A stretch of DNA of 64,000 bases from Azolla caroliniana (taxonomy: Eukaryota > Plantae > Polypodiophyta). This document shows, piece by piece, positions 1 through 48,432 of this stretch; the stretch's first letter is position 1; each line of letters begins with the position of its first letter. The notes under the pieces are model-generated. The model was not told the DNA's origin. It worked only from the letters and a program-made list of their open reading frames with translations, and ran no database searches. Location of the stretch: NCBI GenBank assembly GCA_043228905.1, contig JBHGNT010000011.1, positions 6,076,001-6,140,000 of the forward strand, written 5' to 3'. A program made the position numbers and the translations under genes.

Positions 1-1300
1 TTAGGTGCACATCTTCTAGCTTTCGCAACACTTTCTCGCAATCATGAATATGGTCGACCACGAACTTTCGGCATCCCCGATCATCCATAGTCTCATCTTT
101 TTCTTCCACCGCGCATCCTTTCATCGGAATGTCATCTAGAAACGGCATCGTTATCTCCGGGATGCAATCTCGAAGCACCTTGTTCATCGCGTTCATCATA
201 TGTGCAACCGAGTTTGTCGCTCCTTGTGGTAGTGTGCACATTCGAACTAGTCCTATCGGTGTCCGCATGGTAGTGATGTCTCGGCTCTCCACGGCTAGTT
301 GGAATTGGTCATACCCCGAGTATAGGTCCCCGATGGAGTATATCGCACGTCCGGCAAAAGCTTCCGCGAATTCGTCCACTATCGGACCGACTCCCGAGTT
401 CCGGATCGTGACCTTGTTCACCGGTTGCAAGTCTTGGATGAATCGGAGCGACCCATTCTTCTTCGGAACCGTAAACCATCGATTTGAGTACGGAGCACTT
501 GATGGCTCTAGAATCCCCATCGCCACCTTCTCCTTGAGCAAGTCGATGACTTTCGGAATATGCGCCCGTGGCACCGGAATCGGCTTCAGGTTCCACGGTA
601 CATGATCAATCGTGAAAATCACCATCGGCTCCACTATCTTTGGATCAATGCATCCGATCTCCCTCGATGTGAACGCGAATGCTTTGCCATGTTGCTCCAA
701 CATCTCTCGAAACCGTTTTTCTTCTTCTTGTAAGAGGAACCCACCTCCACCGATCCGAAGTTTCTTCCGGGTCTCATCTGTGAAGGCATGTCCGATATCC
801 ACGGACTTCCGAAGTGTCGGATCTCCCGAGACTTCTTTCTTCTTTTGTTCGCTATCGGCGGGTAGTGGTCCCGCGGCCGGTTTCACCTTCTTCTCCACGG
901 TCTTGTATTTCGTACTTACCATTGCTTCTTCTTTGCGGAGCGCATCCGGCCCCATTTTCGCAACGATCTCGTACATCTCGACCGATTCCACCGGGACTAC
1001 CCGGTTCCCTTGGCTTTTATCTTCCGCAAGCTCTTCAAGCCGTTGTAGTGTATTCCCATAGAACACTTCCTCGATCACTCCCACGATTTCTTCGTCTTCT
1101 TTTATTATTGATGCCGACCGTAACTTATCCTCCACTTGTCGGTATTGTTTCTTCATTCCTCTGGTTACGGCCGTGTACGTAGATGCCCCATCCGGGCCGA
1201 TTCGTACTTGTTTTGCTCCGAGAGTTTTCTTCCTGTGTGGGGTATCAGGGCTTCTCGGACTATCACTTCCCCACTCCGCAATAGTCCGCTTTAAAAATCC
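1..1300 (-). CDS. pol: Pol (RT N-terminal part) of copy A, partial, entered by inferred -1 frameshift
   Basis: Mirror of the 5553-6850 pol region; encodes RT motifs DLYSGYDQ, LPQGATNS, FLDD; open to the window edge. Confidence 0.88.
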
Positions 1301-3083
1301 ATTCTCACTTGGGACAAGAGTTCCCTCTTGTTCCTTTCGTGATTTGCCGGCACCGTTAGGAATTGGACGGATTTCCCTCCGTTTTGGCTCCGAATTCGCG
1401 CAAAAGCCGCACCACTATCGAGCACCTTCGTCTCCATCCGTGAAGCCGTGATAAAGGGTTGGCCGAGGATGACAGAATGTGAAACCTCATCCTGCACAAA
1501 GAAATTTTGGTCAATTTCGACATCCCCGATCTTTACCGTCACATCCGGACAAGCCGCAAATAGGTCTTCTGTCGTTTTCATGGCTGCCCGAATCTTCCAT
1601 CCATGGTTGGTGTTTATAGGCCACTTCCCCTTTCGGTAGAACTCCTTGGACATCAAGTTGATCTCCGATCCGTGATCAATCAATGCTAGCACGGGTTCTT
1701 TGATGTTGCCGATTCGGACCGGAGTCTCCGTAGTCGCACGTGCCCAGTGTGGCCTTGTATAGTGGGAGTTCGGAATTTCGCCTTCCACTTCGGTGTCGTT
1801 CATTGAAACGGTATTTGCATTCACCCTTGGAGCATTTTCCTCCGTACTTTGTCTCTTCCTTTTTACAAGATCCACGAGAAGATCGTGAAACTCCTTCTTC
1901 GCTATTCCGAGTAGTTCCCGCAGCGAAAAATCTACCCGGCTATCCAAGATTCTTTCCTCGAACACTCTTTTCAAGTCAGTTTGTTGTTCTATGTCCGAGG
2001 CGAGCTTGAATGCCGGAGTCGCCTTTTCTTTTCCCTTACCTCCGGAGTTCCAGCTTTCCGGTATCTTCGATGGTCCGGCCGCATCCTCCGTGCGCCGTCG
2101 TTTCTCGTCCACATACACCTCATGTAATTGACACAGGGCGTATATGCTATTCTTGTCGACAGGGCACTCCCATCCCGTAGCTTCCCAGACGCCTTCCGCG
2201 GTGTTTCGGATATCGTTGGAGTCGGTTTTCTCGGTGTTTCCTAGCACCTCCGGCCAGAAAGACGCCTTCGCTCCCGTTGACTCCCCGACACATATTCCCG
2301 CGGTTGTCGCATAGTTGCTTCTTGCTGCTAACTCCTCCTCGAGCACCTTCTTCATGCCGCCTTTCCGGAAGTTCGGTCGGAGTGGCTTCCGAGAGTCCAT
2401 CGAATGAATCCGGTTTCCCTCGTAGTAGATGAGATCCCGTCGTAGCGCCTCCTTATGGTCGTCGCAATCCCTCCGATCGTGTTCGGCGCTATCGCACCAT
2501 ATGCACCGTCGATCCGTATATTTGGAGCTTGTGGGGCGGTCATCCGACTTCTTCACCATCGCGATCTTTAGATTCTCCATCTCCTTCAGCAGCTGCTCCA
2601 CCGTAGACGCGTCGACCCCCTTCTCGGCCGTAATCTCTCGGGCCCTCGGTTGATGGTCTTCCAGTCCCGTTCTCGGTTTCGGAATCGGTTCCGAAACCCT
2701 CTCTTCTTCGTTGGCAAGCCATTGCCCCCTCTTCGTGTACCGCGCGACGATATCCCGTACGCTTTCCCATGTTTCGGTGAGGCCGCTTTCGGTGGTCGTG
2801 TCCTCAAGAAGCACTCCGAGATCTTTCCGGTCCCGGACGTCCACAGCTCGCAAAAACATGATGACTTTGTCCGGTGCAAGAATAGTTTGATCTCTCGCGG
2901 ACAACCTCCCGAACCGACTTTCGAATGTCGAAAACACTTCGAGGACCTTCAGCCCCTTACCTGACGTTTCCACCCAATCCTCGAATCCCCTCCGCGTTGC
3001 CTTGGAGGAGTCCTCGATGGCAAACGTGGTCTTTAACGCCTCTTCGAATGCTTCCCACGTCGGATTTTGTTGTTGCAACCCGT
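1291..3083 (-). pseudogene. gag: Gag-protease ORF of copy A, interrupted by insertion
   Basis: Zinc knuckle CIWCDSAEHDRRDC and aspartic protease ALIDHGSE; the first ~71 aa of the listed 668-aa ORF are read-through from the inserted LTR. Confidence 0.9.
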
Positions 3084-3954
3084 TGTCGTAGTGTAGGTTG
3101 CACACTATGTGAAAATTATATTTTTGTCCCTCCGGATAGAGAATGGAGTGCTCGGGGAGAACCGGAAGAAAACGGCATACCGGCAAGGAGGAAAAACGGC
3201 ATACCGGCAAGGAGGAAAACGGCATACCGAGGAAAAACGGCATACCGGCAAGGAGGAAAACGGCATACCGGCAAGGAAGAAAACGGCATACCGGCAAGGA
3301 AGAGCCGGATAAAGAGACATAAATGTAAAAAGAAAGGAAATACTCACTACTGCGCAGGGCGTGATTCGAACTCTACACCTCCACGTTGACAAACCCCAAC
3401 CTTACCATTACATTAACTTATCTTAAGTGCTTTAAATATAGATTTAATATGTATAAGACCTTTATTTATGCATACCTTTATTAAAAGGTAAATCGTGTAT
3501 TCTTTAATATATGAAAAAGAAAAAACACGAGACACTAAAAATAACTCATGCACATCTAGCGTGCATGAGCCCTATACTTAGGAAATAAAAAAGCATCACA
3601 TGCACATTTAGTGGACATGAACACTTTTTGTAAAAAAAAAGCATGAAGCCATGCTTAGCTCTTCCTTCCTTATATAAGGAGGAGAGAAATATGTAAAGAG
3701 TTGTTGATTATTTGGATTAAGTATTAATCAATACAAAAATTATTCGTGGGATTCACGATTTATACATCTACTTCTCTCTTAACACCCTAAGTACCAATTA
3801 ATATAGTATACTCGTGTGATTCACGAGTTTCTTATCTTTCTCTTTGCTATTTACTCATAATTAATCTCTATCTCACGAACTTCTTTCTCCTAGTCCAAGA
3901 CCTCTGTGGTTCCCACCCGACTCACGCAACGATCCGGAGCCGAAAGGCACGACA
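3084..3954 (+). repeat. 5' LTR of copy B (871 bp)
   Basis: TGTCGT...ACGACA termini; first half repeated from 9149; TATATAA at ~3670; ~6 copies of a ~21-bp AAAACGGCATACCGGCAAGGAGG repeat at ~3168-3300. Confidence 0.95.
3351..3418 (-). other. tRNA-like (A box/B box) cassette in LTR U3; further copies at 9416-9483 (-) and 9763-9830 (+)
   Basis: Minus strand reads TAATGTAATGGTAAG...TTTGTCAA...GAGGTG...GAGTTCGAATC with tRNA-like spacing; stems poorly paired. Confidence 0.6.
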
Positions 3955-3958
3955 CAGT

Positions 3959-3976
3959 TGGTGAACCCGACGTGAA
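3959..3976 (+). promoter_or_regulatory. Primer binding site, tRNA-Trp
   Basis: TGGTGAACCCGACGTGAA is complementary to the plant tRNA-Trp 3' end as recalled (TTCACGTCGGGTTCACCA); 4 nt after the LTR. Confidence 0.9.
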
Positions 3977-3992
3977 GACGGGTGGCAAGGAG

Positions 3993-5562
3993 ATGGAGGC
4001 TCAACAAGCTAACAATATGATGGCGATGTTCGAACGGATGCTTCAAGAACAACGCACGATGTCGGAGATTTCGGCATANNNNNNNNNNNNNNNNNNNNNN
4101 NNNNNNNNNNNNNNNNNNNNNNNNNNNNNNNNNNNNNNNNNNNNNNNNNNNNNNNNNNNNNNNNNNNNNNNNNNNNNNAAGAACGGGATTGGAAGACCAT
4201 CAACCGAGGGCTCGGGAGATTACGGCCGAGAAGGGAGTCGACGCGTCTACGGTGGAGCAGCTGCTGAAGGAGATGGAGAATCTAAAGATCGCGATGGTGA
4301 AGAAGTCGGATGACCGCCCCACAAGCTCCAAATATACGGATCGACGGTGCATATGGTGCGATAGCGCCGAACACGATCGGAGGGATTGCGACGACCATAA
4401 GGAGGCGCTACGACGGGATCTCATCTACTACGAGGGAAACCGGATTCATTCGATGGACTCTCGGAAGCCACTCCGACCGAACTTCCGGAAAGGCGGCATG
4501 AAGAAGGTGCTCGAGGAGGAGTTAGCAGCAAGAAGCAACTATGCGACAACCGCGGGAATATGTGTCGGGGAGTCAACGGGAGCGAAGGCGTCTTTCTGGC
4601 CGGAGGTGCTAGGAAACACCGAGAAAACCGACTCCAACGATATCCGAAACACCGCGGAAGGCGTCTGGGAAGCTACGGGATGGGAGTGCCCTGTCGACAA
4701 GAATAGCATATACGCCCTGTGTCAATTACATGAGGTGTATGTGGACGAGAAACGACGGCGCACGGAGGATGCGGCCGGACCATCGAAGATACCGGAAAGC
4801 TGGAACTCCGGAGGTAAGGGAAAAGAAAAGGCGACTCCGGCATTCAAGCTCGCCTCGGACATAGAACAACAAACTGACTTGAAAAGAGTGTTCGAGGAAA
4901 GAATCTTGGATAGCCGGGTAGATTTTTCGCTGCGGGAACTACTCGGAATAGCGAAGAAGGAGTTTCACGATCTTCTCGTGGATCTTGTAAAAAGGAAGAG
5001 ACAAAGTACGGAGGAAAATGCTCCAAGGGTGAATGCAAATACCGTTTCAATGAACGACACCGAAGTGGAAGGCGAAATTCCGAACTCCCACTATACAAGG
5101 CCACACTGGGCACGTGCGACTACGGAGACTCCGGTCCGAATCGGCAACATCAAAGAACCCGTGCTAGCATTGATTGATCACGGATCGGAGATCAACTTGA
5201 TGTCCAAGGAGTTCTACCGAAAGGGGAAGTGGCCTATAAACACCAACCATGGATGGAAGATTCGGGCAGCCACGAAAACGACAGAAGACCTATTTGCGGC
5301 TTGTCCGGATGTGACGGTAAAGATCGGGGATGTCGAAATTGACCAAAATTTCTTTGTGCAGGATGAGGTTTCACATTCTGTCATCCTCGGCCAACCCTTT
5401 ATCACGGCTTCACGGATGGAGACGAAGGTGCTCGATAGTGGTGCGGCTTTTGCGCGAATTCGGAGCCAAAACGGAGGGAAATCCGTCCAATTCCTAACGG
5501 TGCCGGCAAATCACGAAAGGAACAAGAGGGAACTCTTGTCCCAAGTGAGAATGGATTTTTAA
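3993..5562 (+). CDS. gag: Gag-protease polyprotein of copy B (spans the assembly gap)
   Basis: ATG 17 nt after the PBS; CCHC knuckle; protease LIDHGSE...VILGQPF; ends MDF-stop. Confidence 0.9.
4079..4178. other. Assembly gap (100 N)
   Basis: Run of N; comparison with copy A shows more than 400 nt of gag are missing, so the gap size is nominal. Confidence 1.
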
Positions 5563-5616
5563 AGCGGACTGTTGCGGAGTGGGGAAGTGATAGTCCGAGA
5601 AGCCCTGATACCCCAC
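5553..5616 (+). promoter_or_regulatory. -1 ribosomal frameshift signal (G GAU UUU plus H-type pseudoknot)
   Basis: Pol is in the -1 frame and open from 5553; stem 1 = 5565-5573/5589-5597, stem 2 = GTGGGG 5579-5584/CCCCAC 5611-5616; conserved at 16794-16856. Confidence 0.8.
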
Positions 5617-8600
5617 ACAGGAAGAAAACTCTCGGAGCAAAACAAGTACGAATCGGCCCGGATGGGGCATCTACGTACACGGCCGTAACCGGAGGAATGA
5701 AGAAACAATACCGACAAGTGGAGGATAAGTTACGGTCGGCATCAATAATAAAAGAAGACGAAGAAATCGTGGGAGTGATCGAGGAAGTGTTCTATGGGAA
5801 TACACTACAACGGCTTGAAGAGCTTGCGGAAGATAAAAGCCAAGGGAACCGGGTAGTCCCGGTGGAATCGGTCGAGATGTACGAGATCGTTGCGAAAATG
5901 GGGCCGGATGCGCTCCGCAAAGAAGAAGCAATGGTAAGTACGAAATACAAGACCGTGGAGAAGAAGGTGAAACCGGCCGCGGGACCACTACCCGCCGATA
6001 GCGAACAAAAGAAGAAAGAAGTCTCGGGAGATCCGACACTTCGGAAGTCCGTGGATATCGGACATGCCTTCACAGATGAGACCCGGAAGAAACTTCGGAT
6101 CGGTGGAGGTGGGTTCCTCTTACAAGAAGAAGAAAAACGGTTTCGAGAGATGTTGGAGCAACATGGCAAAGCATTCGCGTTCACATCGAGGGAGATCGGA
6201 TGCATTGATCCAAAGATAGTGGAGCCGATGGTGATTTTCACGATTGATCATGTACCGTGGAACCTGAAGCCGATTCCGGTGCCACGGGCGCATATTCCGA
6301 AAGTCATCGACTTACTCAAGGAGAAGGTGGCGATGGGGATTCTAGAGCCATCGAGTGCTCCGTACTCAAATCGATGGTTTACGGTTCCGAAGAAGAATGG
6401 GTCACTCCGATTCATCCAAGACTTGCAACCGGTGAACAAGGTCACGATCCACTCGGGAGTCGGTCCGATAGTGGACGAATTCGCGGAAGCTTTTGCCGGA
6501 CGTGCGATATACTCCATCGGGGACCTATACTCGGGGTATGACCAATTCCAACTAGCCGTGGAGAGCCGAGACATCACTACCATGCGGACACCGATAGGAC
6601 TAGTTCGAATGTGCACACTACCACAAGGAGCGACAAACTCGGTTGCACATATGATGAACGCGATGAACAAGGTGCTTCGAGATTGCATCCCGGAGATAAC
6701 GATGCCGTTTCTAGATGACATTCCGATGAAAGGATGCGCGGTGGAAGAAAAAGATGAGACTATGGATGATCGGGGATGCCGAAAGTTCGTGGTCGACCAT
6801 ATTCATGATTGCGAGAAAGTGTTGCGAAAGCTAGAAGATGTGCACCTAACACTTTCCGGGGAGAAATCGGCATTCGGGCAAGAAGAAATATTGGTGGTCG
6901 GACATCTATGTGGACCCTACGGCCGAAGACCGTCACCAACAAAGATCGATGCGATTCAAGCTATGAAGGAAGTATGTGAGTCAACATCGGAAGTCCGAAG
7001 GTTTCTGGGTGCGTGTGCATTCTATCACATATGGATTCCGCACTATGCACATATAGCGGACCCGCTCTATCACTTGTTGCGGAAAGGTAAGAAATTCGAG
7101 TGGAAACCGGAACACACTAAAGCCATGAGGAAGCTCAAGAAGACACTATGGAGGGCGGAATCACTTAAGAAGCCAAGCTACGAGCGGCCAATCATAGTAA
7201 CGGTTGATACAAGTCCAACCGGTATCGGGTGGGTCATCAATCAAGCCGACTCGGATGGTTCGCGGTATCCGATCCGATTTGGAGCAAAGGTCCTCAACGA
7301 AAGGCAACGCGGATATGCACAAGTCAAAAGAGAATTGTGGGGAGTCGTGTCGGCGATAAAATCGGATCGGGATTATTTGATCGGAGCTGAAGTGGTGATC
7401 GAGACGGATTGTCTTCCGATACTCGGGATGATGCGGTGTTGTACGATACCGGATGTGGCTATGCTAAGGTGGATTGCATATGTCAAGTCACTTAATCCGG
7501 AGGTTCGACACATCTCGGGGAAGGACAACGCGGTAGCGGACATGTTATCGAGGGCGCGGTTTGAAGACGACATAACCGAATCAGATAATGAAGAAGTTTC
7601 CGAAGACTACTTCACGTCAGAACACATATGCCGAGTGAACGTGATCCGAGAATTCCGGGAAGAAGAATACGAGGGGGAAACCTTGATGATCGGGAAGATG
7701 CTACAAGAGGTCGAGGATTCAACCAATGATAAAGAAAGGAGAGCCGAGATCCGAAGGAAGAAGAGGCAAGTCCAAAAGTTCTTCTTGGAAAACGGTTTAA
7801 TATGGAGGACGCCGAAAAGACCGGATGGGATACCACTTCGAGTAGTCGGGACGAAAGAGCAACGAAACCGGATAATGTCTGAGTTCCACGAATCCGATTG
7901 GGCTGGACATCGAGGAACATGGGCAACTTTTGTGAAAATCAAGCAAAGATATTGGTGGAAGAACATGTATAAAGATGTCGCGGAGTTCACAGAAAGCTGC
8001 GAGAAATGTCAAGTCTACTCCGGGGTCCGACACCGAGATGAGCTGCATCCGACATTCTCACCGACAATCAACTTCAAGTGGATGGTCGACATTGTAGCTA
8101 TGCCGACCGGGATTGGACAAAAGAAATACTTGGTGTTAGCTCGAGAAGATCTCACAAACCAAGTTGAAGGTCGAGCGCTTCGGAGGAAAACGTGTGCCGC
8201 GGTGTGCCAATTTCTTTTGGAAGAAGTGTTTTGTAGGTACGGCTGCGTAGGACAAGTGATTGCGGACCGGGGAGAACTCGACTCGGACAAAGCTAGGGGA
8301 TTCTTCGCCAAACATGGAGTTCGGTTAACGTTGACAACGGCCTACAATCCGGAGGCCAACGGGAAGATCGAACGAGGACATAGTCCGATCGTGAAAGCAC
8401 TTGCGAAGGCATGCGACGGAAGGGTGAAGGATTGGCCACAAATGCTTCCGTATGCACTATGGGCGGATCGGACGACGCATAGCTCCGTGACCGGTTACAT
8501 GCCGGCAGAACTCATGACCGGACAAGCACCGGTAATGCCAACGGAAACCGCAATCGCGACATGGACAATACTACCGTGGAAGGAAGAGATGAGCCGGGAA

Positions 8601-9161
8601 GAACTACTAGCGGTCCGGATACGACAACTGGAGGGAAGACCGAAAGATGTAGCGGAAGCGTCACGCCGACAACACGAAGCACGGTTCCGGAACAAAAGCC
8701 GGTTCGACACAAAGCACCGACTACGACCGAGGAGGATTGAAGAAGGAGATTGGGTGATCGTCTATGATAGGAGCTTGGACCATCAACATACAACGATGCG
8801 GAAATTCGCGAAAAGGTGGTTCGGGCCGTACGAGGTTCGGAAGGTCTTCGACAACGGGACGTACCGACTGTCCGAGTTGGATGGAACAATACTACGAGTG
8901 CCTATAGCCGGGAAGCGGGTGAAGATTTTCAAGAAGCGGACCGACGACAAACCTTATGTGATCCAAGTCGAGGCCGACAACGAGGAACAATCGGACGAAG
9001 ACCACAATGATGCGGGAAGCGAAGAAAGTGGATTACAACTCATAGTCGACATAAGGGGAGAATCGGAGGAAGCTTCGGATGAAGACGGATACGAAGAATC
9101 AAGAACTTCGGCACATACCGGAGGATGTGCGGGTTTGGAGGGGGCGAGTGTCGTAGTGTAG
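5553..9161 (+). CDS. pol: Pol: reverse transcriptase, RNase H, integrase
   Basis: RT FLDD, RNase H VDTS/ETDC/ADMLSR, integrase HHCC (H..GH..CEKC), ADRG, NGKIER, GPY motif, acidic tail; uninterrupted for 1154+ aa. Confidence 0.96.
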   Translation, partial: GFLKRTVAEWGSDSPRSPDTPHRKKTLGAKQVRIGPDGASTYTAVTGGMKKQYRQVEDKLRSASIIKEDEEIVGVIEEVFYGNTLQRLEELAEDKSQGNRVVPVESVEMYEIVAKMGPDALRKEEAMVSTKYKTVEKKVKPAAGPLPADSEQKKKEVSGDPTLRKSVDIGHAFTDETRKKLRIGGGGFLLQEEEKRFREMLEQHGKAFAFTSREIGCIDPKIVEPMVIFTIDHVPWNLKPIPVPRAHIPKVIDLLKEKVAMGILEPSSAPYSNRWFTVPKKNGSLRFIQDLQPVNKVTIHSGVGPIVDEFAEAFAGRAIYSIGDLYSGYDQFQLAVESRDITTMRTPIGLVRMCTLPQGATNSVAHMMNAMNKVLRDCIPEITMPFLDDIPMKGCAVEEKDETMDDRGCRKFVVDHIHDCEKVLRKLEDVHLTLSGEKSAFGQEEILVVGHLCGPYGRRPSPTKIDAIQAMKEVCESTSEVRRFLGACAFYHIWIPHYAHIADPLYHLLRKGKKFEWKPEHTKAMRKLKKTLWRAESLKKPSYERPIIVTVDTSPTGIGWVINQADSDGSRYPIRFGAKVLNERQRGYAQVKRELWGVVSAIKSDRDYLIGAEVVIETDCLPILGMMRCCTIPDVAMLRWIAYVKSLNPEVRHISGKDNAVADMLSRARFEDDITESDNEEVSEDYFTSEHICRVNVIREFREEEYEGETLMIGKMLQEVEDSTNDKERRAEIRRKKRQVQKFFLENGLIWRTPKRPDGIPLRVVGTKEQRNRIMSEFHESDWAGHRGTWATFVKIKQRYWWKNMYKDVAEFTESCEKCQVYSGVRHRDELHPTFSPTINFKWMVDIVAMPTGIGQKKYLVLAREDLTNQVEGRALRRKTCAAVCQFLLEEVFCRYGCVGQVIADRGELDSDKARGFFAKHGVRLTLTTAYNPEANGKIERGHSPIVKALAKACDGRVKDWPQMLPYALWADRTTHSSVTGYMPAELMTGQAPVMPTETAIATWTILPWKEEMSREELLAVRIRQLEGRPKDVAEASRRQHEARFRNKSRFDTKHRLRPRRIEEGDWVIVYDRSLDHQHTTMRKFAKRWFGPYEVRKVFDNGTYRLSELDGTILRVPIAGKRVKIFKKRTDDKPYVIQVEADNEEQSDEDHNDAGSEESGLQLIVDIRGESEEASDEDGYEESRTSAHTGGCAGLEGASVVV
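9111..9148 (+). promoter_or_regulatory. Pre-PPT hairpin and polypurine tract
   Basis: GCACATACCGGAGGATGTGC hairpin, then GGAGGGGGCGAG directly before the LTR TG. Confidence 0.8.
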
Positions 9162-10031
9162 GTTGCACACTATGTGAAAATTATATTTTTGTCCCTCCGG
9201 ATAGAGAATGGAGTGCTCGGGGAGAACCGGAAGAAAACGGCATACCGGCAAGGAGGAAAAACGGCATACCGGCAAGGAGGAAAACGGCATACCGAGGAAA
9301 AACGGCATACCGGCAAGGAGGAAAACGGCATACCGGCAAGGAAGAAAACGGCATACCGGCAAGGAAGAGCCGGATAAAGAGACATAAATGTAAAAAGAAA
9401 GGAAATACTCACTACTGCGCAGGGCGTGATTCGAACTCTGCACCTCCACGTTGACAAACCCCAACCTTACCATTACATTAACTTATCTTAAGTGTTTTAA
9501 ATATAGATTTAATACGTATAAGACCTTTATTTATGCATACCTTTATTAAAAGGTAAATCGTGTATTTTTTTAATATATGAAAAAGAAAAAACACGAGACA
9601 CTAAAAATAACTCATGCACGCTAGATGTGCATGAGTTATTTTTAGTGTCTCGTGTTTTTTCTTTTTCATATATTAAAAAAATACACGATTTACCTTTTAA
9701 TAAAGGTATGCATAAATAAAGGTCTTATACGTATTAAATCTATATTTAAAACACTTAAGATAAGTTAATGTAATGGTAAGGTTGGGGTTTGTCAACGTGG
9801 AGATGCAGAGTTCGAATCACGCCCTGCGCAGTAGTGAGTATTTCCTTATTTTTACATTTATGTCTCTTTATCCGGCTCTTCCTTGCCGGTATGCCGTTTT
9901 CTTCCTTGGCCGTTTTCCTCCTTGCCGGTATGCCGTTTTTTTCCTCCTTGCCGGTATGCCGTTTTCCTCCATTCTCTATCCGGAGGGACAAAAATATAAT
10001 TTCCACATAGTGTGCAACCTACACTACGACA
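9149..10031. repeat. Long inverted repeat: half 3' LTR of B (9149-9619) fused to inverted half 5' LTR of A (9627-10031)
   Basis: Centre CTCATGCAC-gctagat-GTGCATGAG; ends in CACTACGACA at 10031. Confidence 0.93.
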
Positions 10032-10213
10032 GCGCTATGGTGACGTAGTAGATTAACAGAGTCCTTTAGAAAACCCATCTGTAAATGGTAAATGCAACAA
10101 CATGTGTATCGATCCTTTAAGCGTCTCACAAAGTGTGGCTTAAGAGACTCGAATGTTCGTAGTTGAACTTTGATAGTTGGATGCATTCGTTTGAACCTAA
10201 TAAATAAATCGAC
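10032..10213 (-). CDS. Transposase-like exon 2 (not in the ORF track), cut by the LTR at 10031
   Basis: AG acceptor at 10215-10214, phase 0; VDLFIRFKRMHPTIKVQLRTFESLKPHFVRRLKDRYTCCCIYHLQM with a CxCxxH motif. Confidence 0.75.
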
Positions 10214-10244
10214 CTACGTAATAAAGGGGAATTAGTTGTTCTCG

Positions 10245-11290
10245 TAACTAGCTAGCTATCCTAGTAGCTAATTAGCTATTCTAGTAGCTTATTAGCTATT
10301 CTAGTAGCTTATTAGATATTCTAGTAGCTTATTAGCTATCATGGTAGCTAATTAGTTGTCCTAGTAGCTAATTAGTTGTCCTAGTAGCTAATTAGCTGTC
10401 CTAGTAGCTAATTAGCTATCATGGTAGCTAATTAGCTATTCTATCATGGTAGCTAATTAGCTATTCTAGTAGCTAATTAGCTATCATGGTAGCTAATTAG
10501 CTGGTCTAGTAGCTAATTAGCTTTCCTAGTAACTAATTAGCTATCATGGTAGCTAATTAGCTGGTCTAGTAGCTAATTAGCTATCATGGTAGCTAATTAG
10601 CGGGTCTAGTAGCTAATTAGGTATCATGGTGGCTAATTAGTGGTCCTAGTAACTAATTAGCTATCATGGTAGCTAATTAGTTGGTCTAGTAGCTAATTAG
10701 CTATCATGGTAGTTAATTAGCTGGTCTAGTAGCTAATTAGCTATAATGGTGGCTAATTAGCTATCCTAACTAATTAGCTATCATGGTAGCAAATTAGCTG
10801 GTCTAGTAGCTAATTAGCTATCCTAGTAAGCTAATTAGGTATCATGGTAGCTAATTAGCTTTCCTAGTAGCTAATTAGCTGGTAATAACGAAATAGCTAA
10901 CTAGCTACCAATACAGCTAATTATCTGGTAGTACCTAAATTAGCTATTGAGAATAGCTAATTAGCTATCATGGTAGTAGCTATTGAGAGTAGCCAGTTAC
11001 CTATGTAGTAGCTATCCTAGTAGCTAACTAGCTATCATGGTAGCTAATTAGCTTTCCTAGTAGCTAATTAGCTGGTAATAACGAAATAGCTAACTAGCTA
11101 CCATGATAGCTAACTAGCTACCAATACAGCTAATTATCTGGTAGTACCTAAATTAGCTATTGAGAATAGCTAATTAGCTATCATGGTAGTAGCTATTGAG
11201 AGTAGCCAGTTACCTATGTAGTAGCTATCCTAGTAGCTAACTAAGGTAAATGTAACTGATAAGCTAATTAGCTTTTTTGCTAACTAAGCT
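10245..11290. repeat. Intronic ~20-bp minisatellite built on the palindrome TAGCTAATTAGCTA
   Basis: Dozens of degenerate units TAGCTAATTAGCTATC(CTAG/ATGG), with a higher-order duplication at ~10840-11240. Confidence 0.95.
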
Positions 11291-12091: not shown

Positions 12092-12425
12092 GTTAAAACC
12101 CTAAATTTCCAGAAAAAAAAACAAGTATTTAAGATGGCTATGGGCAACAACAATACACAAAAATATTCCACAATACACAAGATTAGACACAACAATACAC
12201 AAAATAATCAATAGACAGAAAAGTTATTGCAATCCAAGACCGAACAGTAGAGGAGTTCACTCCGTTAGATCGAACAGTTCAAGAGGTGATCCAAGACCGA
12301 CCAATGGCGACAACTGAGTGTAGAATGTTGCCGTTGGATGAGTGAACTCCGTCAAATTGAAATGTGGAAGCAATCCGGGACTGGACAGTAGCGGCAACTG
12401 AGTATAGAATGATGGCAATGGAGGA

Positions 12426-13245
12426 GAGAACCCCGTTAGATTGAACAGTTACCGATGATGCTTGGAACACACATAGAAGGCACCTGAGAGTAGAGTGGCA
12501 CAGAGAAGAGAACCTCATCAGATTGAACAGTTACCAATGATGCTTGGAACGCACAGTAGTGGCCCCTGAGTGTAGAGTGGCACAGAGAAGAGAACCCCGT
12601 CAGATTGAACAGCTCTTTGATGATGCTTGGAACGCACGGTAGTGGCCCTTGAGTGTAGAGTGGCAAAGAGAAGAGAACCCCGTCAGATTGAACAGCTCTT
12701 TGATGATGCTTGGAACGCACGGTAGCGGCCCCTGAGTGTAGAGTGGCACAGAGAAGAGAACCCCGTCAGATTGAACAGCTCTTTGATGATGCTTGGGACG
12801 CACAGTAGCGGCCCCTGAGTGTAGAGTGGCAAAGAGGAGAGAACCCCGTCAGATTGAACAGCTCTTTGATGATGCTTGGAACGCACGGTAGCGGCCCCTG
12901 AGTGTAGAGTGGCAAAGAGAAGAGAACCCCGTCAGATTGAACAGCTCTTTGATGATGCTTGGAACGCACGGTAGCGGCCCCTGAGTGTAGAGTGGCAAAG
13001 AGAAGAGAACCCCGTCAGATTGAACAACTCTTTGATGATGCTTGGAACGCACGGTAGTGGCCCCTGAGTGTAGAGTGGCACAGAGAAGAGAACCCCATCT
13101 GATTGAACAGCTCTTTGAGGATGCTTGGAATGCACAGTAGTGGCCCCTGAGTGTAGAGTGTCACAGAGAAGAGAACCCCGTCAGATTGAGCAGCTCTTTG
13201 ATGATGCTTGGAACGCACAGTAGCGGCCCCTCAGTGTAGAGTGGC
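12426..13245. repeat. 83-bp tandem array, ~10 copies (degenerate units back to ~12240)
   Basis: Unit GAGAACCCCGTCAGATTGAACAGCTCTTTGATGATGCTTGGAACGCAC...; the 83-nt period is also visible in the staggered ORFs. Confidence 0.97.
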
Positions 13246-13694
13246 AGCAGGTGGACTCGATAGGGTTTAGCAACAGTGGTAGCAACTAACCCACAGTACT
13301 TAACTAGAGATGGCCTACGTGATGTGGCAAAGGATCATGCATAATGGACCTAGGAATTCGATATATAATTTATGGTACACATTTATGGTGCACACATCAA
13401 TTTATGTTTTGCACATTTATGGCACTCATTTACATATGTAATTAAAACACTCTAGTATTTTCAATGGTAGTTTTTTGCATACTTAATTTATTAATGATGG
13501 CTTTTTACTAAAATGACTATTTATCAATGGTAGCTTTTTGCATAGCTAATTAGCTATGTCAAGGACATAGCTAATTGTTTCCACTCGCATGCTTTCACCC
13601 TTATATATAAAACATTATCAAATGTTATTTTAGTTACGTATTTATCTAATTGTAGACTTTTAATGTGAAGCTTTCGTACTTCACGACATCCACC

Positions 13695-21453: not shown

Positions 21454-22345
21454 TACCCATACGCCTCCAATAGAGCTCCCTCAAAGGACTCCCACGATTC
21501 GTGAGCTTCTCGGAGCTCCTTGACCTCTTCGTACCTTGATACGGCCGTCACTCGACAAAAAAAATCTAGCCTTGTTGCTTCGTCCACACCCCGCTCTGTC
21601 ATCTCGACATTGTAAGCTCTCAAAAAACTTGGGACCTCATTCTCATTGAACCGGCGGACTCGATCGACCACCCTTTCGACGTCGTGTTGAGCCGCATCTC
21701 GTTTCACCATCTTCCGTCCGGCTTCCATCACGATCTTTGCCATCATCTCCTCGAAGTCGAAGTCTTCTTCCATCTCCATGCTCCCTTTCCGCCCTTCACG
21801 TCGGGTTCACCAAATATGTCGTGTTGTAACGTGCGTGCGTGTAGAAGGAGCGGGACCACCAAGGTCTCGGACTAGGGAGTAGAGGAGAAAGAATAAGATA
21901 TGTTTTGGAAGCTTAGCTCAAGAGGAGAAGAAGAAAGAATAAGACCATGACATAGAAGGAGAGATCTGCTGAGGCAAGATGTTCAACAAGTTATATTAAA
22001 ACAAACGAATGATTACAACAATGGTGGCCGCATGGGCCGCACCAAACGACTATGAGAAAACCCTAACCGAGGATGAATAAGGAACCCTAAACGAAACCCT
22101 AACCCTAAAACGGTAAGAACTCTAGACTAAGTGGTATACCTTTCATACGCAAAATAAGCAACCCATTCATAAGTGACCCCTCCCTTCCTTTTATAGCCCA
22201 AGGAGGGAGGGACCTTACAATGTGGGATAAAATTTCCCCTCTTATTTCTATACACCATTTCCTAGTCTACGTGTGCACATGTTGCACACCACCGACTTGC
22301 CCATTCCACCCCAGTTTCCCCCTATGGACGAAAATCTTCACGACA
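21454..22345 (-). mobile_element. 5' end of a third Phygy-like element: LTR 21817-22345, Trp PBS 21795-21812, gag start 21779 to 21454
   Basis: LTR TGTCGTGAAGATTTTCG...CACGACA; same PBS as 3959; gag SWESFEGALLEAY resembles TWEAFEEALKTTF of copy A. Confidence 0.88.
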
Positions 22346-34629: not shown

Positions 34630-35380
34630 CCTCATTCATCCTCCAAAATGTCCAGAATGCTCTGGTCTCGGGGTTCCAACGGTTCATCGGGTAGTTGCTC
34701 CATTCTCTTCAACGGCAAGCATCGATTGCAATTTGAAGAACGAAGGCAAACCGCCATCCGTAATGATCCAAACTTCTACGCCAATCCTTCGAGACAGACC
34801 TGCACCATTTCTTCCTCCTCGACGGTCATGTTGATGGAGGTGAGGGAATTGCAGATGTCTTTGATCTAGGAGGTGTAATCAGACACCGACATGTCTCTTT
34901 GTCAAACAATGCTTAGTTCCTATCTTAGCTGAAGCTTTCTCGCTGTGGTGCTTGCCACGAAAATTTTCTTCAGATTTCCCCAAGCCTCCTTTGGTGTCTT
35001 GGCATCCCGGTTGTAGCTCAATAGCTTATCACTTACACTAGATGCAAAGCACTAGAAAACTTTGCTTGCCAACTAATCCCAAGACGGAAAATCCTTATGT
35101 GTTGAATCTGGTGTTGCTGCTCCTTCGACATAACTCCAATATCCATGTCGTAACATATATTGGTGCATCTTGTATGGCCAAGATGCGTAGTTGCTCCTAT
35201 CAAGCTTCTCCGTCGGAAGCGAGCTTCCCATGCCTTTGTCCATTTCTCGTTTTCGTATGTTCTCATCTGAACGCTAAGATTTGTCTGTGTTGGAAGTTCT
35301 TGTCGGCAGCAGAGGATGTTCAACCCTCGCACTCTGATACCATGTAAAAATCAAAGTGTGGAAGCTAAACACAAATCACA
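34630..35380 (-). mobile_element. Copia 5' fragment (LTR stub, Met PBS 35331-35342, decayed gag)
   Basis: TGGTATCAGAG on minus directly after CA; gag-like TPKEAWGNLKKIF frame. Confidence 0.7.
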
Positions 35381-35934
35381 ACAGGCTCAGCCGGATCGCA
35401 ACAAGAATCCGGATAATCGGAAATCCACGTCTGGCTACATATTCAACTAGGGCGGAGGAGCCATATCCTAGAGGTTGAAGCTTCAAGACTACACGGCCCT
35501 CTTGACAATGGCGCAAGAGAGCATGTGGGACTACAACAAGTGACCAAGCAGCAAAGAGCCTAATGAATAGATGCAGCAGGTGTCCAAACCAAGAGTAAAA
35601 GATAGAGTGATGGAAGAAGGATATAAGAGAACACGAGAAGAAAGGAAGGAAATGCTAAAAGAAGAATGGGTGTATTAAGATAGAGAAAGAAAGAAAATGG
35701 ATACAAGATATGTTATGAGAGCTAAATACTAGTGTTGATTCAAATTGATTTGATATTACATATATGCCCTTATTTATAGGTTCATATAGAATAGCTTAGA
35801 GATTTCTATAATGTTCTAGAATGTTCTAGACCTAGAATGTTTTGGGATATTCTAGAACATTCTAGAATGATCTAGAGTTTTTACAATAATCAATGTAATA
35901 CAAAAAAGTAGCTTTTATCCTCTCATATGACAAT

Positions 35935-36004
35935 AAGCTATCTTAATTGTTGACGTTTTCAATTATGGATTACAAGGTTCGAGGTTCAAGTCCGGGTGAC
36001 GCCA
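35935..36004 (+). other. tRNA-like cassette in Tcn1-like LTR U3 (second copy 39439-39508)
   Basis: TATCTTAATGGTTGAG...TTATGGA...AAGGTT CGAGGTTCAAGTCC...CCA, ~70 nt, antisense to the element. Confidence 0.6.
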
Positions 36005-39000
36005 CAATGGTCATGTGTTCATGACACTATTCCTCCTTTGAGAACGGCGAGTGGAAGTCAGCGTTAACATTGTAGTTCCGGGTTTGTTTGGATATTAGTG
36101 ATGGAAGTCATCGACAAGAGCTTGAGCATTACAAATGTTATCGACAGATTCCCAAGGGCGATCACTCAGAGGATAGCCAAGCCAATCAACTAGATAATAA
36201 AGTTTATTGTGCACAATCTTAGAATCGAGAATAGCAGCTACCTCGTATTCGGGGCTGCCAACCAGCTGGACAGAAGGCGGTGGTGGTATGACACGATTAG
36301 GAATTAAAGAGGTGGCTATTGAAGACTAGGTGAAGCCGCATATGTGCAAGAAGGTTAAGACGAAATGTTGCATCATTAATCCATGTTGTGATGACAAAAG
36401 GACCGAAGCGTTGATAATCAAGCTTAGCACACGGGCGGGTAGCCTTGATGTGACGACGACGCAACCATACTTGGTTACCAACCTTAAAAGGAGACTTAAG
36501 ACGATGTTGATTGGCATTGGTCTTATGGTGTGCTTGCGCTTTTTGAAGATGTGAAGATAACTCAAACTGGATTTGTTGTAGTCGGTGGAGGTCATGCATC
36601 ACACTAGGGTTTTGTGACACCTCCGGAAGATCCAAGATACACCATCGAGGGTGGTTGCCAATGTAGGCAAAGAAGGGTGTAACTTTGGTAGAAGAGTGTA
36701 CCGTGTTATTGTATGCAAACTCGGCAAGATGTAAAATATTACTCCAATCATCTTGTTGATAACTGATGAAGCATCGAAGATACTGCTCAAGCGTTTGATT
36801 GTCAAGAGGGCCGTGTATTCTTCACTATTGATGGTCTTTACACATGTTACAAAATGTGCCATCTTTGTGAACCGATCCACTCCTATTAAAACAATATCAA
36901 AGACTTTCGAAGGTGGCATATCCATAATGAAATCCACAAAAATAGACTGCCATGGTTTGCTAGGGAGGTGGTAATGGTTGTAGTAAGCCATAAGGATGAC
37001 GCCTGGGTATTTTGGCGCAACAATAGGTGTCACATGTGCGAACATAATCTTCAACAAATTTTTGCGAGTGAGGCCACCAAAACGAATGTTTCACCAGCTC
37101 AATGGTCTTGGCAATACCAAAATGTCCAGCCATGGGGCCATCATGACAATGTTCTAACACTTGAAGTTAGGGTGATCCGTCAGTGACGTAAAGGAAATTC
37201 TTGTAGAAGAGTAAGCCATCTTGCCACTTGAAGTCCTGATAATGTTGAGATGACCCTTGCAATGTGGAGCAAGATGGAAGACTTGAACCAATGTGGGCTA
37301 AGACATCCTTAGCAAAATCATCAGAGTGAAGTTGTTGCAGAATAGTGTCAAGAAGGCTAGAATCAAGTGGCTTGGCATAAATTGTTATTGCTTGTAGCTT
37401 TGATGGCCCGAGGAATATCTGTTTTCGATTGTCAAAGGCCAGATCTCCAGGTCTAAGAGCTAAATACAAACGTCGAGATAAAGCATCTGCTTTCCCTTGT
37501 TGTTTTCCGGAACAAAAAATGATCTTGAAATCGAAACGCGTTAGAAATCGGGCCCATCGAGCTTGTCGTCTATTTAATACTCGAACTGTTTGAAAATATG
37601 TCAGATTTTTGTTGTCTCTATAAATGATAATTTGATGAGGCGATCCTTCTAGAAAATGACGTCATTGCTCGAATGAGTCGACCACAGCTAGTAACTCCTT
37701 GTCATGCACCTCATAGTTTATCTCCGAAACAGTCAATTTTCTCGAGTCTGCCCGTGCTCGCCTGGTTGCAATAGGATACTCCCCAATGTGAAGTTTAACG
37801 CAGCTGCCTCAATAGTAAATGGATTTTCGGGATCAATATGCACTAGGATATGTGCTGATGTGAATGCCTCTTTCAACTAAGTAAAAGCCTTGTCTGCTTC
37901 GATACTCCAAAAAAATGCTTGATTTTTCTTGGTCAGTTGGGTGAGGGGCAACACAATGCTTGAATAATTACGTATGAATTTGCAATAGAAGTTCGCAAAT
38001 CCGAGGAAACACTAGACGTCCCGAACTGAACATGGGGGTTTCCATTCCAATATCGTTTGGACTTTTGCCGGATCCATGGAAATACCTTTGGATGAAATAG
38101 TGTAACCCAAAAAATCGACTTGTTTGCAATCAAAACTGCATTTCACAAGTTTGGCATAAAGATCATACTTTCTTAGGCGTTCAAGTACTTTCCCCCATGT
38201 ATATCATGCTCCTCCTACGTTTTAAAGTAAACCAACAGATCATCTAGGTAGATGATGATAAAGATATCCAACTATTTGCCTTGGGGATGATCGTGCCGTT
38301 ACTGATGCATAAGTTGGTGTGAATCTTGATCTTGTTATTTGTTGTTGTTGCTCACATCGACGCTCAAAAAGGCAATTCTCACACCGTATTGCTCGACTAA
38401 TACCTTCTATAAGTGACCTTGGATTCTCGGGGAAGGTAAGAAGTAAGTCTTTGACATCACTACGAAGGCCTGAACGGAATGTCTCCATTAGGGCTTGTTC
38501 ATCCCAAGGAATATCGCTTGCGATAAGACGGAAATTGGCTGCATATGTCGAAGCTGGCTAATCACCTTGACGTAGTGTACGAATCTTGTTGATAGTTGTT
38601 CTCACCCCATCAGTATCTCCAAAACAAGCCTTAAATTCTTTGATAAATTCCTCGAAATTATTCAGTAGAGGAGAATTTGTCTCTAGCAATGGGGCAAACC
38701 ACAACAACGTTATGCCAGTCAATAAGGTGCCCACTAACCCAACTCGCGATGCATCTGTTGGATAATGCGTGGGATGCATTTGAATCACCAACCGTACTTG
38801 ATTCAAGAAACCTCGGAAATGCACCCTCGAACCATCAAATTCAGTTGGGAGGCTGATTTTGGGCTCCTGGATAAGTCCTTGACCTTCGACCCTTTGTTTT
38901 TGTAATACTACGATTATCGACTCTAACTATTGTTGTTGCCTCTCTATAGTAACCTTTTGTAGATCCCCAAGTAGACGTTGATTCTCTACTTCAAGAGATG

Positions 39001-39087
39001 CGAACTTGGATTTAAGATTCTCCATTTCTGCAACAAGGGTGAGATATTCATGATGGTTACAAAGGAGGATGAGAGAGAGAGAGAGAG

Positions 39088-39099
39088 AATTCGAATCAA
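39088..39099 (-). promoter_or_regulatory. Self-priming PBS
   Basis: TTGATTCGAATT just after the 5' LTR is complementary to AATT(C/T)GAATCAA about 30 nt downstream of the LTR TATA (35735-35746; 39255-39266). Confidence 0.75.
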
Positions 39100-40099
39100 A
39101 CTGTCAGAACCAAGAATAAAAGATAGAGTGATGGAAGAAGGATATAAGAGAACACGAGAAGAAAGGAACGAAATCTAAAAGAAGAATGGGTGTATTAAGA
39201 TAAAGAAAGAAAGAGAATGGATACAAGATATGTAATGAGAGCTAAAGACTGGTGTTGATATGAATTGATTTGAGAATACATGTATGCCCTTATTTATAGG
39301 TTCTTATAGAATAGCTTAGATATCTCTATAACGTTCTAGAATGTTCTGGGACATTCTAGAACATTCTGGAATGATCTAGAGTTTTTTGCAATAATCAATG
39401 TAATACAAAAAGTAGCTTTCATCCTCTCATATGAAAGTAAGCTATCTTAATGGTTGAGGTTTTCAATTATGGATTACAAGGTTCGAGGTTCAAGTCCAGG
39501 TGACACCACAATGGTCATGTGTTCATGACAACAGGCAAGTCGAAGACCAGCTCGGTCGGACGAGCAGAGAAGGCAAAGTTGATGAAGCCGGAAAGCGGAG
39601 AGGCTAAGAACGCAATTGTGTGTTAACAAGTCGACTGGAAAAGAGATGATCGAGGGACAAGTGGACCCCAAGACCAATCAAGGATTCAGCCATAAGTTTA
39701 TCCACTTGTAATTATATAACTGAAATTTTAGATTCAAATTGTAATAACCCCAACAGATTGTATACCCATATAGGGGGGAGTTTGTTGGGATAAAAGGCTG
39801 ACTCTACCCATTTGTATCTCTAGTGTAAACACACAAACTAGTTAGGGATTAATTATATGAAACCCAACTAACTCATTGTAAGAAAGAATCTAGAGAGTTT
39901 TGGAGGGAATAAGCAAGACCGCCTTTGGGCTTAACTGTCTGTGCTTCTTGCTTCGTGAATTTGTTATAGGGCAACTCTACTTCCTTAGTTTAACAACATG
40001 GTCACTGACACTAGATATGTGGAGAACAATCCTTAACAATATCCCTCAAACAACTTCCATTTTCCTTCGGCAATCATAAAATGGAAATTCATCATCATT

Positions 40100-47380: not shown

Positions 47381-48432
47381 TGTCGTGAAGATTTTCGACA
47401 ATGGTGTGAAAATCACATAAGACGTACGAAATCAAGTGTCAATCATATAAAACAATAATAGTGAATATACTAATTCTAAGTAAGTTTAATATCTTAGTAC
47501 AAAAGACGAAGATCTTGAAAAGATGCACTTTACTACATAAGAAACGAACATCTAACTGTCAACTTATGTGAGTAAGAAGTTGGGAAAGAAAAAGAGAAAA
47601 TTGTGAGATATCCCACATAGATAGGACGAATAAGGCTCTCACCATATATAATGTAGAGCAAAAGTTATTATCTTTGTGTCTATGTGTGGAGCATAGAGAG
47701 TTGAAGGTAACTTGAACTAAGAGTGGAGGTGGCCTAGCCACTCATAAAGGTTTTGGCCAACCAAAACGAAACTGGACGGTAACCGGCGATCGGCATTCGA
47801 CGAGGTGGTGGTGGAGCCAATGATCCGATGGGCTGGCGAGGCGGTATCCGGCAACCAAATTAATAAATAAATATATATATATATATACACAAGGAGGGCA
47901 AGTGAGGATTTAAACCTTGCACCTCCCTCCTAGTTAAGAGTCAATAGGCTTACCACTAAGCCATGACATTTAGTTGAATTTATATTTCTATCATTGTACT
48001 TTTAAATGTAAATTTTCATACATGAGAGCTAAAATGAGTGACATGGTTATCATGCACCACATGTAATACATGAGCGCCAAATGGCACACATGGATTTTAT
48101 GCTTGTCTTGTACCCTCACATGCATCATATGCATGAGAGCATCTATAAAAGAAGGGATGAAAAAGAAAAAGGGTTCGGCTCTTTTGGTTATGAAATTAAG
48201 AAGAAGAAAATTCGTTATCGAATTGATTGTGTAACTTGTTTCTTAAATCTAAAGATAAAAGTTCAATCAATCTCTCTGAATCGAAAGTCAAGCGTTTAAT
48301 CTCAATTTCTCTCTTTCCCAATCTATCTTCAATACTTCCTCACTAAAGCTTATACCGACTTCGAATCCTTCCAGTCCAGAACCCCAGCGGTTTCGCCTCA
48401 CGATCCGTGCCTAGTGATGGATCTTCACGACA
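47381..48432 (+). repeat. Solo LTR (1052 bp), Phygy-like family
   Basis: 12-bp terminal inverted repeat TGTCGTGAAGAT/ATCTTCACGACA; 4-bp TSD CCAT/CCGT; same start as the LTR at 22345. Confidence 0.92.
47896..47967 (-). other. tRNA-like cassette in the solo LTR
   Basis: TGGCTTAGTGGTAAGCC (A box, paired D arm), CTCTTAA loop (Lys-CTT-like), GAGGTG, AGG-TTTAAAT-CCT T arm. Confidence 0.65.

Follow-up and report, generated by a model that had tools for sequence, protein, structure and literature searches.

Autonomous plant LTR elements are held to use Pol II alone, and in the accessible parts of two reports Pol III promoters are ascribed just to small, non-autonomous elements (PMC12786077, PMC10886601). 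The closest described system is Helenus (TRIMp3; Kojima 2024, PMC10886601), which resembles the elements reported here in that its LTRs hold tRNA-derived sequence with conserved boxes A and B and no functional tRNA, in its patchy spread, for which multiple origins have been proposed, and in that both LTRs contain the boxes, as do those of the elements in the window (the whole 64-kb stretch of DNA that was analysed). However, as described in the accessible part of that report, Helenus elements are non-autonomous and 311-1263 bp long, their boxes are proposed to make the template RNA, and the sole plant case is Selaginella. In contrast, the carriers described here are coding Ty3/gypsy elements with a TATA box and, in family 1, an open pol frame of 1240 aa, and their modules are mostly antisense, often terminated, present in up to three copies per LTR and undetected by ARAGORN and Rfam. 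The window elements thus fall outside Helenus, in that they are coding, have a TATA box and bear boxes unable to transcribe the template. According to the accessible part of the same report, tRNA-like sequence is present in "not a few" LTRs of Repbase (PMC10886601).

Cassandra TRIMs likewise place the Pol III promoter and terminator of a small-RNA gene in plant LTRs; however, as far as the accessible text goes, their promoter is of the 5S type (boxes A and C), and they are non-autonomous elements of vascular plants that are themselves transcribed by Pol III (PMC7215508, PMC12786077). tRNA genes and ETC sites provide a further comparison, since their B box also has extended upstream contacts, and TFIIIC has been tied to chromatin boundaries in yeast and animals (PMC11724288, PMC9540200). 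ETC sites are described in the same partial sources as binding TFIIIC without TFIIIB or Pol III, whereas the modules described here keep an A box at tRNA spacing. We saw no plant demonstration of TFIIIC chromatin organisers in the accessible parts of these two papers (PMC11724288, PMC9540200), and the plant barrier review cites tRNA/TFIIIC barriers, in the part available, just for yeast and animals (PMC9540200). Unlike tRNA-gene and ETC sites, the sites here ride on mobile elements. The heads of tRNA-derived SINEs combine A and B boxes with a decayed cloverleaf; compared with these, the modules here show no tail, no TSD of their own and no depth excess over the flanking LTR.

Pol III boxes in Phygy or Tcn1 LTRs are not mentioned in the accessible parts of Neumann et al. 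2019 (PMC6317226), nor are these boxes in those of PMC7466625 and PMC3350952. A search of openly accessible article texts found no description of such boxes in moss Phygy or Tcn1 LTRs.

LTR Retrotransposons of the Window

The window is made up of a nest of LTR retrotransposons (table 1), whose strands were read from the pol ORFs, PBS and PPT. As outlined in the accessible part of Neumann et al. 2019 (PMC6317226), Phygy and Tcn1 are both moss clades, the former of short non-chromovirus Ty3/gypsy elements with an NCGN target, the latter of chromodomain-bearing elements of the self-priming type. Family 1 and the solo LTR conform to the Phygy type, reading as short, non-chromoviral elements with an NCGN target. 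The PBS of family 1 is presumably of the tRNA-Trp type. The family-1 pol had no match to a chromodomain, and the nearest named homologs of its RT-RNase H were Riccia (liverwort) and Adiantum (fern) proteins, about 57-72% identical. The minus-strand element at 35581-39530, which keeps gag-pol remains, appears to fit the Tcn1 clade because its closest homologs have a chromodomain and its distant ones are fungal (the closest is 84% identical and carries PF00385). There was no TGG PBS behind its 5' LTR, and the self-priming complement of its LTR, a clade trait of 10 or more nt, had no exact match of at least 9 nt in this aged copy. Taken together, the two clades would suggest a moss as the source of the DNA.

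The family-1 element stands head-to-head with an inverted copy that is 99.5% identical (window 1-10031), and a short inverted repeat centred on 9620-9626 marks the point at which its 3' LTR is fused to an LTR piece in inverted orientation. Either the element nested in itself and then underwent a deletion between the inverted LTRs, or the assembly is at fault here. Two tandem arrays adjoin the junction (10170-11243, 12250-13334), one palindrome-rich with a 20-bp unit and one with an 83-bp unit.

Table 1. Positions of LTR elements, A/B-box modules and associated features in the window
Feature	Coordinates	Strand	Remarks
Family-1 5' LTR, Phygy-type Ty3/gypsy	3084..3954	+	TG..CA ends; NCGN left flank; PBS from 3959
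T5 run, candidate Pol III terminator	3327..3331	-	19 nt behind family-1 module
A/B-box module, family-1 5' LTR	3351..3422	-	Spacing 44
Parts of this module	A box 3415-3405; positions 44-47 at 3380-3377; B box 3371-3363	-	
Family-1 TATA box	3671..3678	+	300 bp from G53 of module
PBS, common to Phygy-type loci	3959..3976	+	
Family-1 gag frame, DUF4100	4021..5562	+	100-N gap inside
Family-1 open pol frame, 1240 aa	5439..9161	+	RT, RNase H, integrase
Family-1 3' LTR, U3 part	9149..9623	+	Ends at palindromic junction
A/B-box module, family-1 3' LTR	9416..9487	-	G53 at 9436
A/B-box module, inverted family-1 LTR piece 9624-10031	9759..9830	+	G53 at 9810; antisense to that LTR
Tcn1-type chromovirus 3' LTR	35581..36026	-	5-bp TSD, one mismatch
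A/B-box module, chromovirus 3' LTR	35932..36004	+	G53 at 35984; spacing 45; G18 lost
Tcn1-type chromovirus 5' LTR	39102..39530	-	TATA 39298-39292
A/B-box module, chromovirus 5' LTR	39436..39508	+	G53 at 39488; spacing 45
Solo LTR, second Phygy-type family	47381..48432	+	4-bp TSD, one mismatch; NCGN on right
A/B-box module, solo LTR	47895..47970	-	G53 at 47915; spacing 48; TATA at 48144

A/B-Box Modules in the Window

A preliminary description of this DNA had placed six tRNA-like cassettes in the U3 of these LTRs, each antisense to its own element and upstream of a TATA box. All six were located where it had placed them, the strands given by pol ORFs, PBS and PPT bore out the antisense orientation, and each module lay upstream of a TATA box, the distance from G53 being 300 bp in family 1, 229 bp in the solo LTR and 190 or 206 bp in the chromovirus. 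However, just three of the six are distinct, since the three family-1 copies differ from one another by 1-2 nt and the Tcn1-type pair represents the two LTRs of one insertion. The module of the chromovirus 3' LTR stops 22 bp short of the U3 tip, and that of the 5' LTR, 190 bp from its TATA box, is followed by no T4 run before the LTR end. A T-run terminator was present in family 1 and absent from the solo and chromovirus modules. The solo module, in which C56 of the B box has become T, is likely decayed.

Throughout the chromovirus family, position 10 of the A box is occupied by T. Common variants of family 1 at 3372, 3410, 3411 and 3413 shift the boxes toward the canonical form, and none of the 40 variants listed of 83 falls in the B-box core; likewise, the 15 chromovirus variants all lie outside the A box and outside positions 53-60 of the B box, with C61 variable at about 1-19%, all within a comparison whose 80% likeness filter favours similar copies. 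With the same filter, depth in the contigs of four public runs was equal over the family-1 module and the adjacent U3, and thus the module belongs to the family and does not represent a dispersed SINE.

Occurrence of the Modules in Related Loci

We aligned 49 pol proteins for a profile search and took the best 80 of 326 related metagenome-contig loci, which are collapsed short-read contigs and may be chimeric. The resulting LTR set comprised 61 segments of at least 300 nt (47,259 nt in total, some ends limited to 900 nt), which formed 36 groups by LTR similarity. Both box patterns of the search were textbook ones, and any spacing from 30 to 59 was accepted. These patterns are in line with PMC10886601. 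The scan returned 28 matches in the LTRs, 21 of them at spacing 44 or 45; dinucleotide shuffles gave 0.2 pairs at these spacings per round (maximum 1 in 20 rounds), and no such pair occurred in 228,241 nt of pol. A two-block profile, scored with the own group left out, found modules in 14 of the 36 LTR groups and none in shuffles or in pol. When the profile was trained on outside loci alone, its matches in the 64 kb were exactly the six sites of the preliminary description; 12 other window intervals taken as LTRs or LTR remains (Copia, a second chromovirus and other Phygy-type LTRs among them) scored at most 2.8, against 28.5-38.9 for the modules. One of the window families without a module is represented by a Phygy-type 5' LTR on the minus strand (21817-22345, PBS 21812).

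The remaining 22 of the 36 groups gave no match, and the module is dispensable because complete LTRs are among them (L019, L026/L030, L064, L076, L015). L019 carries a second chromovirus-type module. Among viral contigs there were no further chromovirus or Phygy LTR loci, and genome contigs yielded two distant chromovirus loci (42-48%) in which no module was seen, their LTR cover being uncertain. Chromovirus-like retrotransposon contigs were also encountered within two bacterial MAGs (L081, L082), probably as eukaryotic contamination.

Several loci depart from the common arrangement. L033 has two sense modules with a spacing of 49-50 (6808-7040), a deletion has shortened the module at L038:1054-1118 to spacing 33, and in L045 and L027 a lone second B-box-like block is repeated just downstream of the antisense module. 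Decayed copies comprise the solo module (C56T), L060, L007 and L038 (deletion).

Conservation of Promoter Positions and Loss of the tRNA Fold

The cassettes had been called tRNA-shaped, and this was not confirmed. ARAGORN found no tRNA gene in the window or in any of the 31 related loci scanned. Rfam, with matches reported up to E = 10, gave no tRNA family for the window or for three cut-outs of 131 nt from it, and no tRNA match for two cut-outs from related loci. In the window modules 7-10 of 20 stem positions pair. Stem-pair counts, which replaced the covariance-versus-shuffle comparison proposed earlier, gave 41-52% pairing over 26 modules and 41-42% in shuffles, with weak excesses only in the T stem (p 0.02) and in acceptor Watson-Crick pairs (p 0.05), values inflated by kinship among the modules. 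Just one of the six window modules folded better than its shuffles (solo, z -4.5), via a hairpin that is not a cloverleaf. The anticodon-like loops carried no identity signal: at 39467 the majority of Tcn1-type copies depart from the window sequence, and the loop assignment of the solo LTR, whose spacing of 48 required two anchors in the cluster and stem counts, shifts with the anchoring box. The proposal that the boxes are better kept than the stems was, on the other hand, upheld. With an A box and a B box at tRNA spacing, the architecture is that of a Pol III type-2 promoter, and the modules, judged from their sequence, are A-box/B-box promoter pairs and not tRNAs.

Conservation of the boxes is partly circular as a measure, the boxes being the search pattern, and we therefore considered positions outside it. 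Among the 19 modules found by the textbook scan or lying in the window, A44 was kept in 16, G45 in 18, G46 in 18, T47 in 17, T20 in 16, A38 in 15 and T33 in 14. The 29 modules overall fall into 13 clusters with chance-level spacer identity (31%), across which G46 scored 12.9, G45 12, T47 12 and A38 10.8; three of these clusters, all singletons, were found only by the profile containing positions 43-47, positions 33 and 38 belong to no pattern, and relatedness among modules means that p-values overstate independence. C56 was kept in 27 of the 29. A pyrimidine at 33 and A38 persist despite drift of the stems and the anticodon. Four-fold pol sites were saturated (29-33%) in six family pairs, in which the boxes were 62-88% and the extra positions 80-100% alike, compared with 33-51% for the flanks. 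T4 runs lay at most 25 nt behind 13 of 27 modules, against 5.4 expected, a comparison whose p-value is inflated by related modules. The upstream flank of the modules, where a plant type-2 promoter would have TATA-like and CAA elements, is 75-81% A+T within a U3 that is AT-rich throughout.

According to the accessible parts of the yeast literature, TFIIIC contacts a base upstream of the B box, and changes at +44 to +47 alter transcription (PMC11724288); the A box is needed for TFIIIB placement and not for TFIIIC binding (PMC11724288), and a change of C56 cuts binding 370-fold (PMC11811891). Because the boxes, positions 44-47 and the spacing were kept while stems and spacers drifted, the conserved parts correspond to what a promoter needs and not to what an RNA needs. 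These results support the interpretation of the modules as retained tRNA-type Pol III promoter elements in LTR families.

Orientation and Evolutionary History

The term outward-facing, applied earlier to the modules, describes a tendency and not a rule: 9 of the 13 clusters face away from the TATA box and 4 face toward it. For the TATA-proximal antisense modules, the distance to a TATA-like core is 190-319 bp, and in 8 of 13, chromovirus included, it is 190-211 bp; several cut LTR segments showed no core. The four sense clusters upstream of TATA (L008/L009, L011, L023, L054) each have a T4 run 3-24 nt behind. Some LTRs hold two or three modules, which in L031 and L045 flank the TATA box on both sides and face away from it, and whole modules have been duplicated within the LTRs of L029, L031 and L045.

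In a tree of 54 rows (L060 and L076 are not in it, and 8 loci bear no label, being uninformative or degenerate), each of the five deep branches of a 43-row clade (support 94/86, not starred) contained carriers, and the module state changed 7 times among 41 labelled rows. None of the six loci outside this clade carries a module, one of the six having short LTR cover. The simplest reading would be ancestral presence followed by losses and U3 exchange. L002 and L046 are 95-96% identical to the window family 1 in pol, yet their module spacers are just 52% alike and U3 has diverged, reflecting either exchange of U3 blocks between close families or chimeric contigs; pol divergence is thus an imperfect clock for the modules.

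Three independent captures had been proposed, with differing loops as their sign. Family 1 and the solo LTR share both clade and module position, and the solo LTR aligns across the module with the LTR of L017, a member of the family-1 clade (68% over 427 columns); thus, the solo module is not independent of that of family 1, and the loops differ because the spacer has drifted freely. A separate origin is required for the chromovirus module alone. Its spacer identity to Phygy modules reached at most 43%, equal to the background maximum, and candidate sources are a host gene or SINE, capture of U3 from Phygy, and fungal ancestors. We rejected SINE insertion, since the modules in the window had neither an A-rich tail nor a TSD of their own, depth showed no spike, and a profile scan of the 64 kb gave no match outside LTRs; the modules are fixed in LTR families, in agreement with the original view, and are not isolated insertions.

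Possible Roles of the Modules

The modules are clade-wide and apparently selected. From their architecture, we consider it quite probable that they serve as Pol III promoters; whether they also help the TATA promoter of the LTR, as analogy suggests, seems to us an evenly balanced matter. Taken as a whole, our best explanation, namely selected Pol III promoter pairs whose fold has decayed and which aid the Pol II promoter, is one that we hold with equal measures of belief and doubt. We propose that one tRNA gene or SINE head would have been captured in the clade ancestor, followed by duplication, inversion and swapping of the module with U3 blocks and by several losses, with separate acquisition by the chromovirus. 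By analogy with yeast and human work, TFIIIC would dock on the B box and bases 44-47, and the A box would position TFIIIB in the interval that separates the module from the TATA box. The Pol III product would be a short, unstructured RNA of about 90 nt, directed away from the transcript of the element and terminated at the T-run. The local TFIIIC/TFIIIB complex would keep the TATA promoter of the element, about 200-300 bp off, open, and the putative benefit is lower nucleosome cover or a block to the spread of silencing, leading to more transposition. Against such a helper role stand the 22 of 36 groups without a module, the 4 of 13 clusters that face TATA, and the chromovirus, with T at position 10 of its A box and no terminator within the LTR. 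According to the accessible part of PMC7544208, methylation silences clustered tRNA genes of Arabidopsis whose boxes are intact.

A tRNA gene or SINE head that fell into an ancestral LTR might instead have been carried along without benefit. Its absence from 22 of 36 LTR groups, the seven state changes on the tree and the decayed copies (solo C56T, L060, L007, L038) would fit such a passenger, and U3 swapping could make the modules look younger than pol; however, decay has been selective, with stems and spacers at chance and boxes, 44-47 and spacing persisting in 13 clusters, modules were duplicated whole (L029, L031, L045), and poly(A) accompanied 0 of 29 contexts while flanking repeats of 8 or more nt accompanied 7 of 29, none of them in the window. 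We regard this as improbable. It is unlikely, although somewhat less so, that the product itself matters, in the form of a short Pol III RNA in antisense to U3 serving as a regulator of the element, as a decoy or as input for small-RNA pathways. The kept A box and the terminators imply transcription beyond TFIIIC binding, pyrimidine 33 and A38 were retained though in no search pattern, and most modules are antisense to the genomic RNA, but neither fold nor spacer sequence is conserved and sense-oriented modules share the same features. The original suggestion of decoy or antisense RNA is thereby weakened, as RNA sequence and fold are both unkept. The PBS is intact in all Phygy-type loci where covered, so the RNA is not needed as a primer, and on this ground a self-encoded primer was rejected.

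Targeting, in which bound TFIIIB/TFIIIC would guide integration or nuclear position and LTRs would act as landing pads, for the same or for other elements, or as cDNA-end tethers, has precedent in the established Ty3/Ty1-type targeting of Pol III genes (from partly accessible sources), and in the chromovirus 43 bp separate the B box from the U3 tip. We nevertheless judge it decidedly improbable, given that none of the six window modules, a small sample, has an insertion just upstream, that the nested family-1 copy sits in gag and that Phygy prefers an NCGN target (PMC6317226, accessible part). Hardly credible is a Helenus-like role, in which Pol III would transcribe the template RNA of the element from these boxes: every window module is directed away from the internal region, the elements have a length of about 4-7 kb, are coding and possess a TATA box, and all four sense modules upstream of TATA (L008/L009, L011, L023, L054), whose orientation would otherwise suit this role as proposed for the tRNA-derived LTR sequence of TRIMp3 (PMC10886601, accessible part), have a T4 run 3-24 nt behind.

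Returning to the selected promoter pair as helper of the TATA promoter, a broader version is conceivable but doubtful: autonomous elements of two deep lineages in mosses, Phygy and Tcn1, might each have enlisted Pol III promoters stripped of the tRNA fold, placed about 200 bp from the TATA box or flanking it, as portable anti-silencing elements that keep them transcribed in heterochromatic TE islands. If true, moss genomes would hold thousands of unannotated TFIIIC/TFIIIB sites, and Pol III cassettes beside the TATA box of coding elements would constitute a new cis-strategy in transposon-host conflict. tRNA finders miss the modules, and genome annotations would too. Being natural and high in copy number, the modules would allow the question of whether tRNA-type promoters form chromatin barriers in plants to be tested, and mosses are a group with efficient gene targeting.

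Two further observations concern parts of the window away from the modules. An AT-rich stretch holds a 266-aa frame with no Pfam match (42347-43147), which we take to resemble a decayed LINE piece. At 35274-35342, a minus-strand Copia-type PBS is followed by sequence that reads as a plus-strand B-box-like motif, perhaps through extended complementarity to the primer tRNA.
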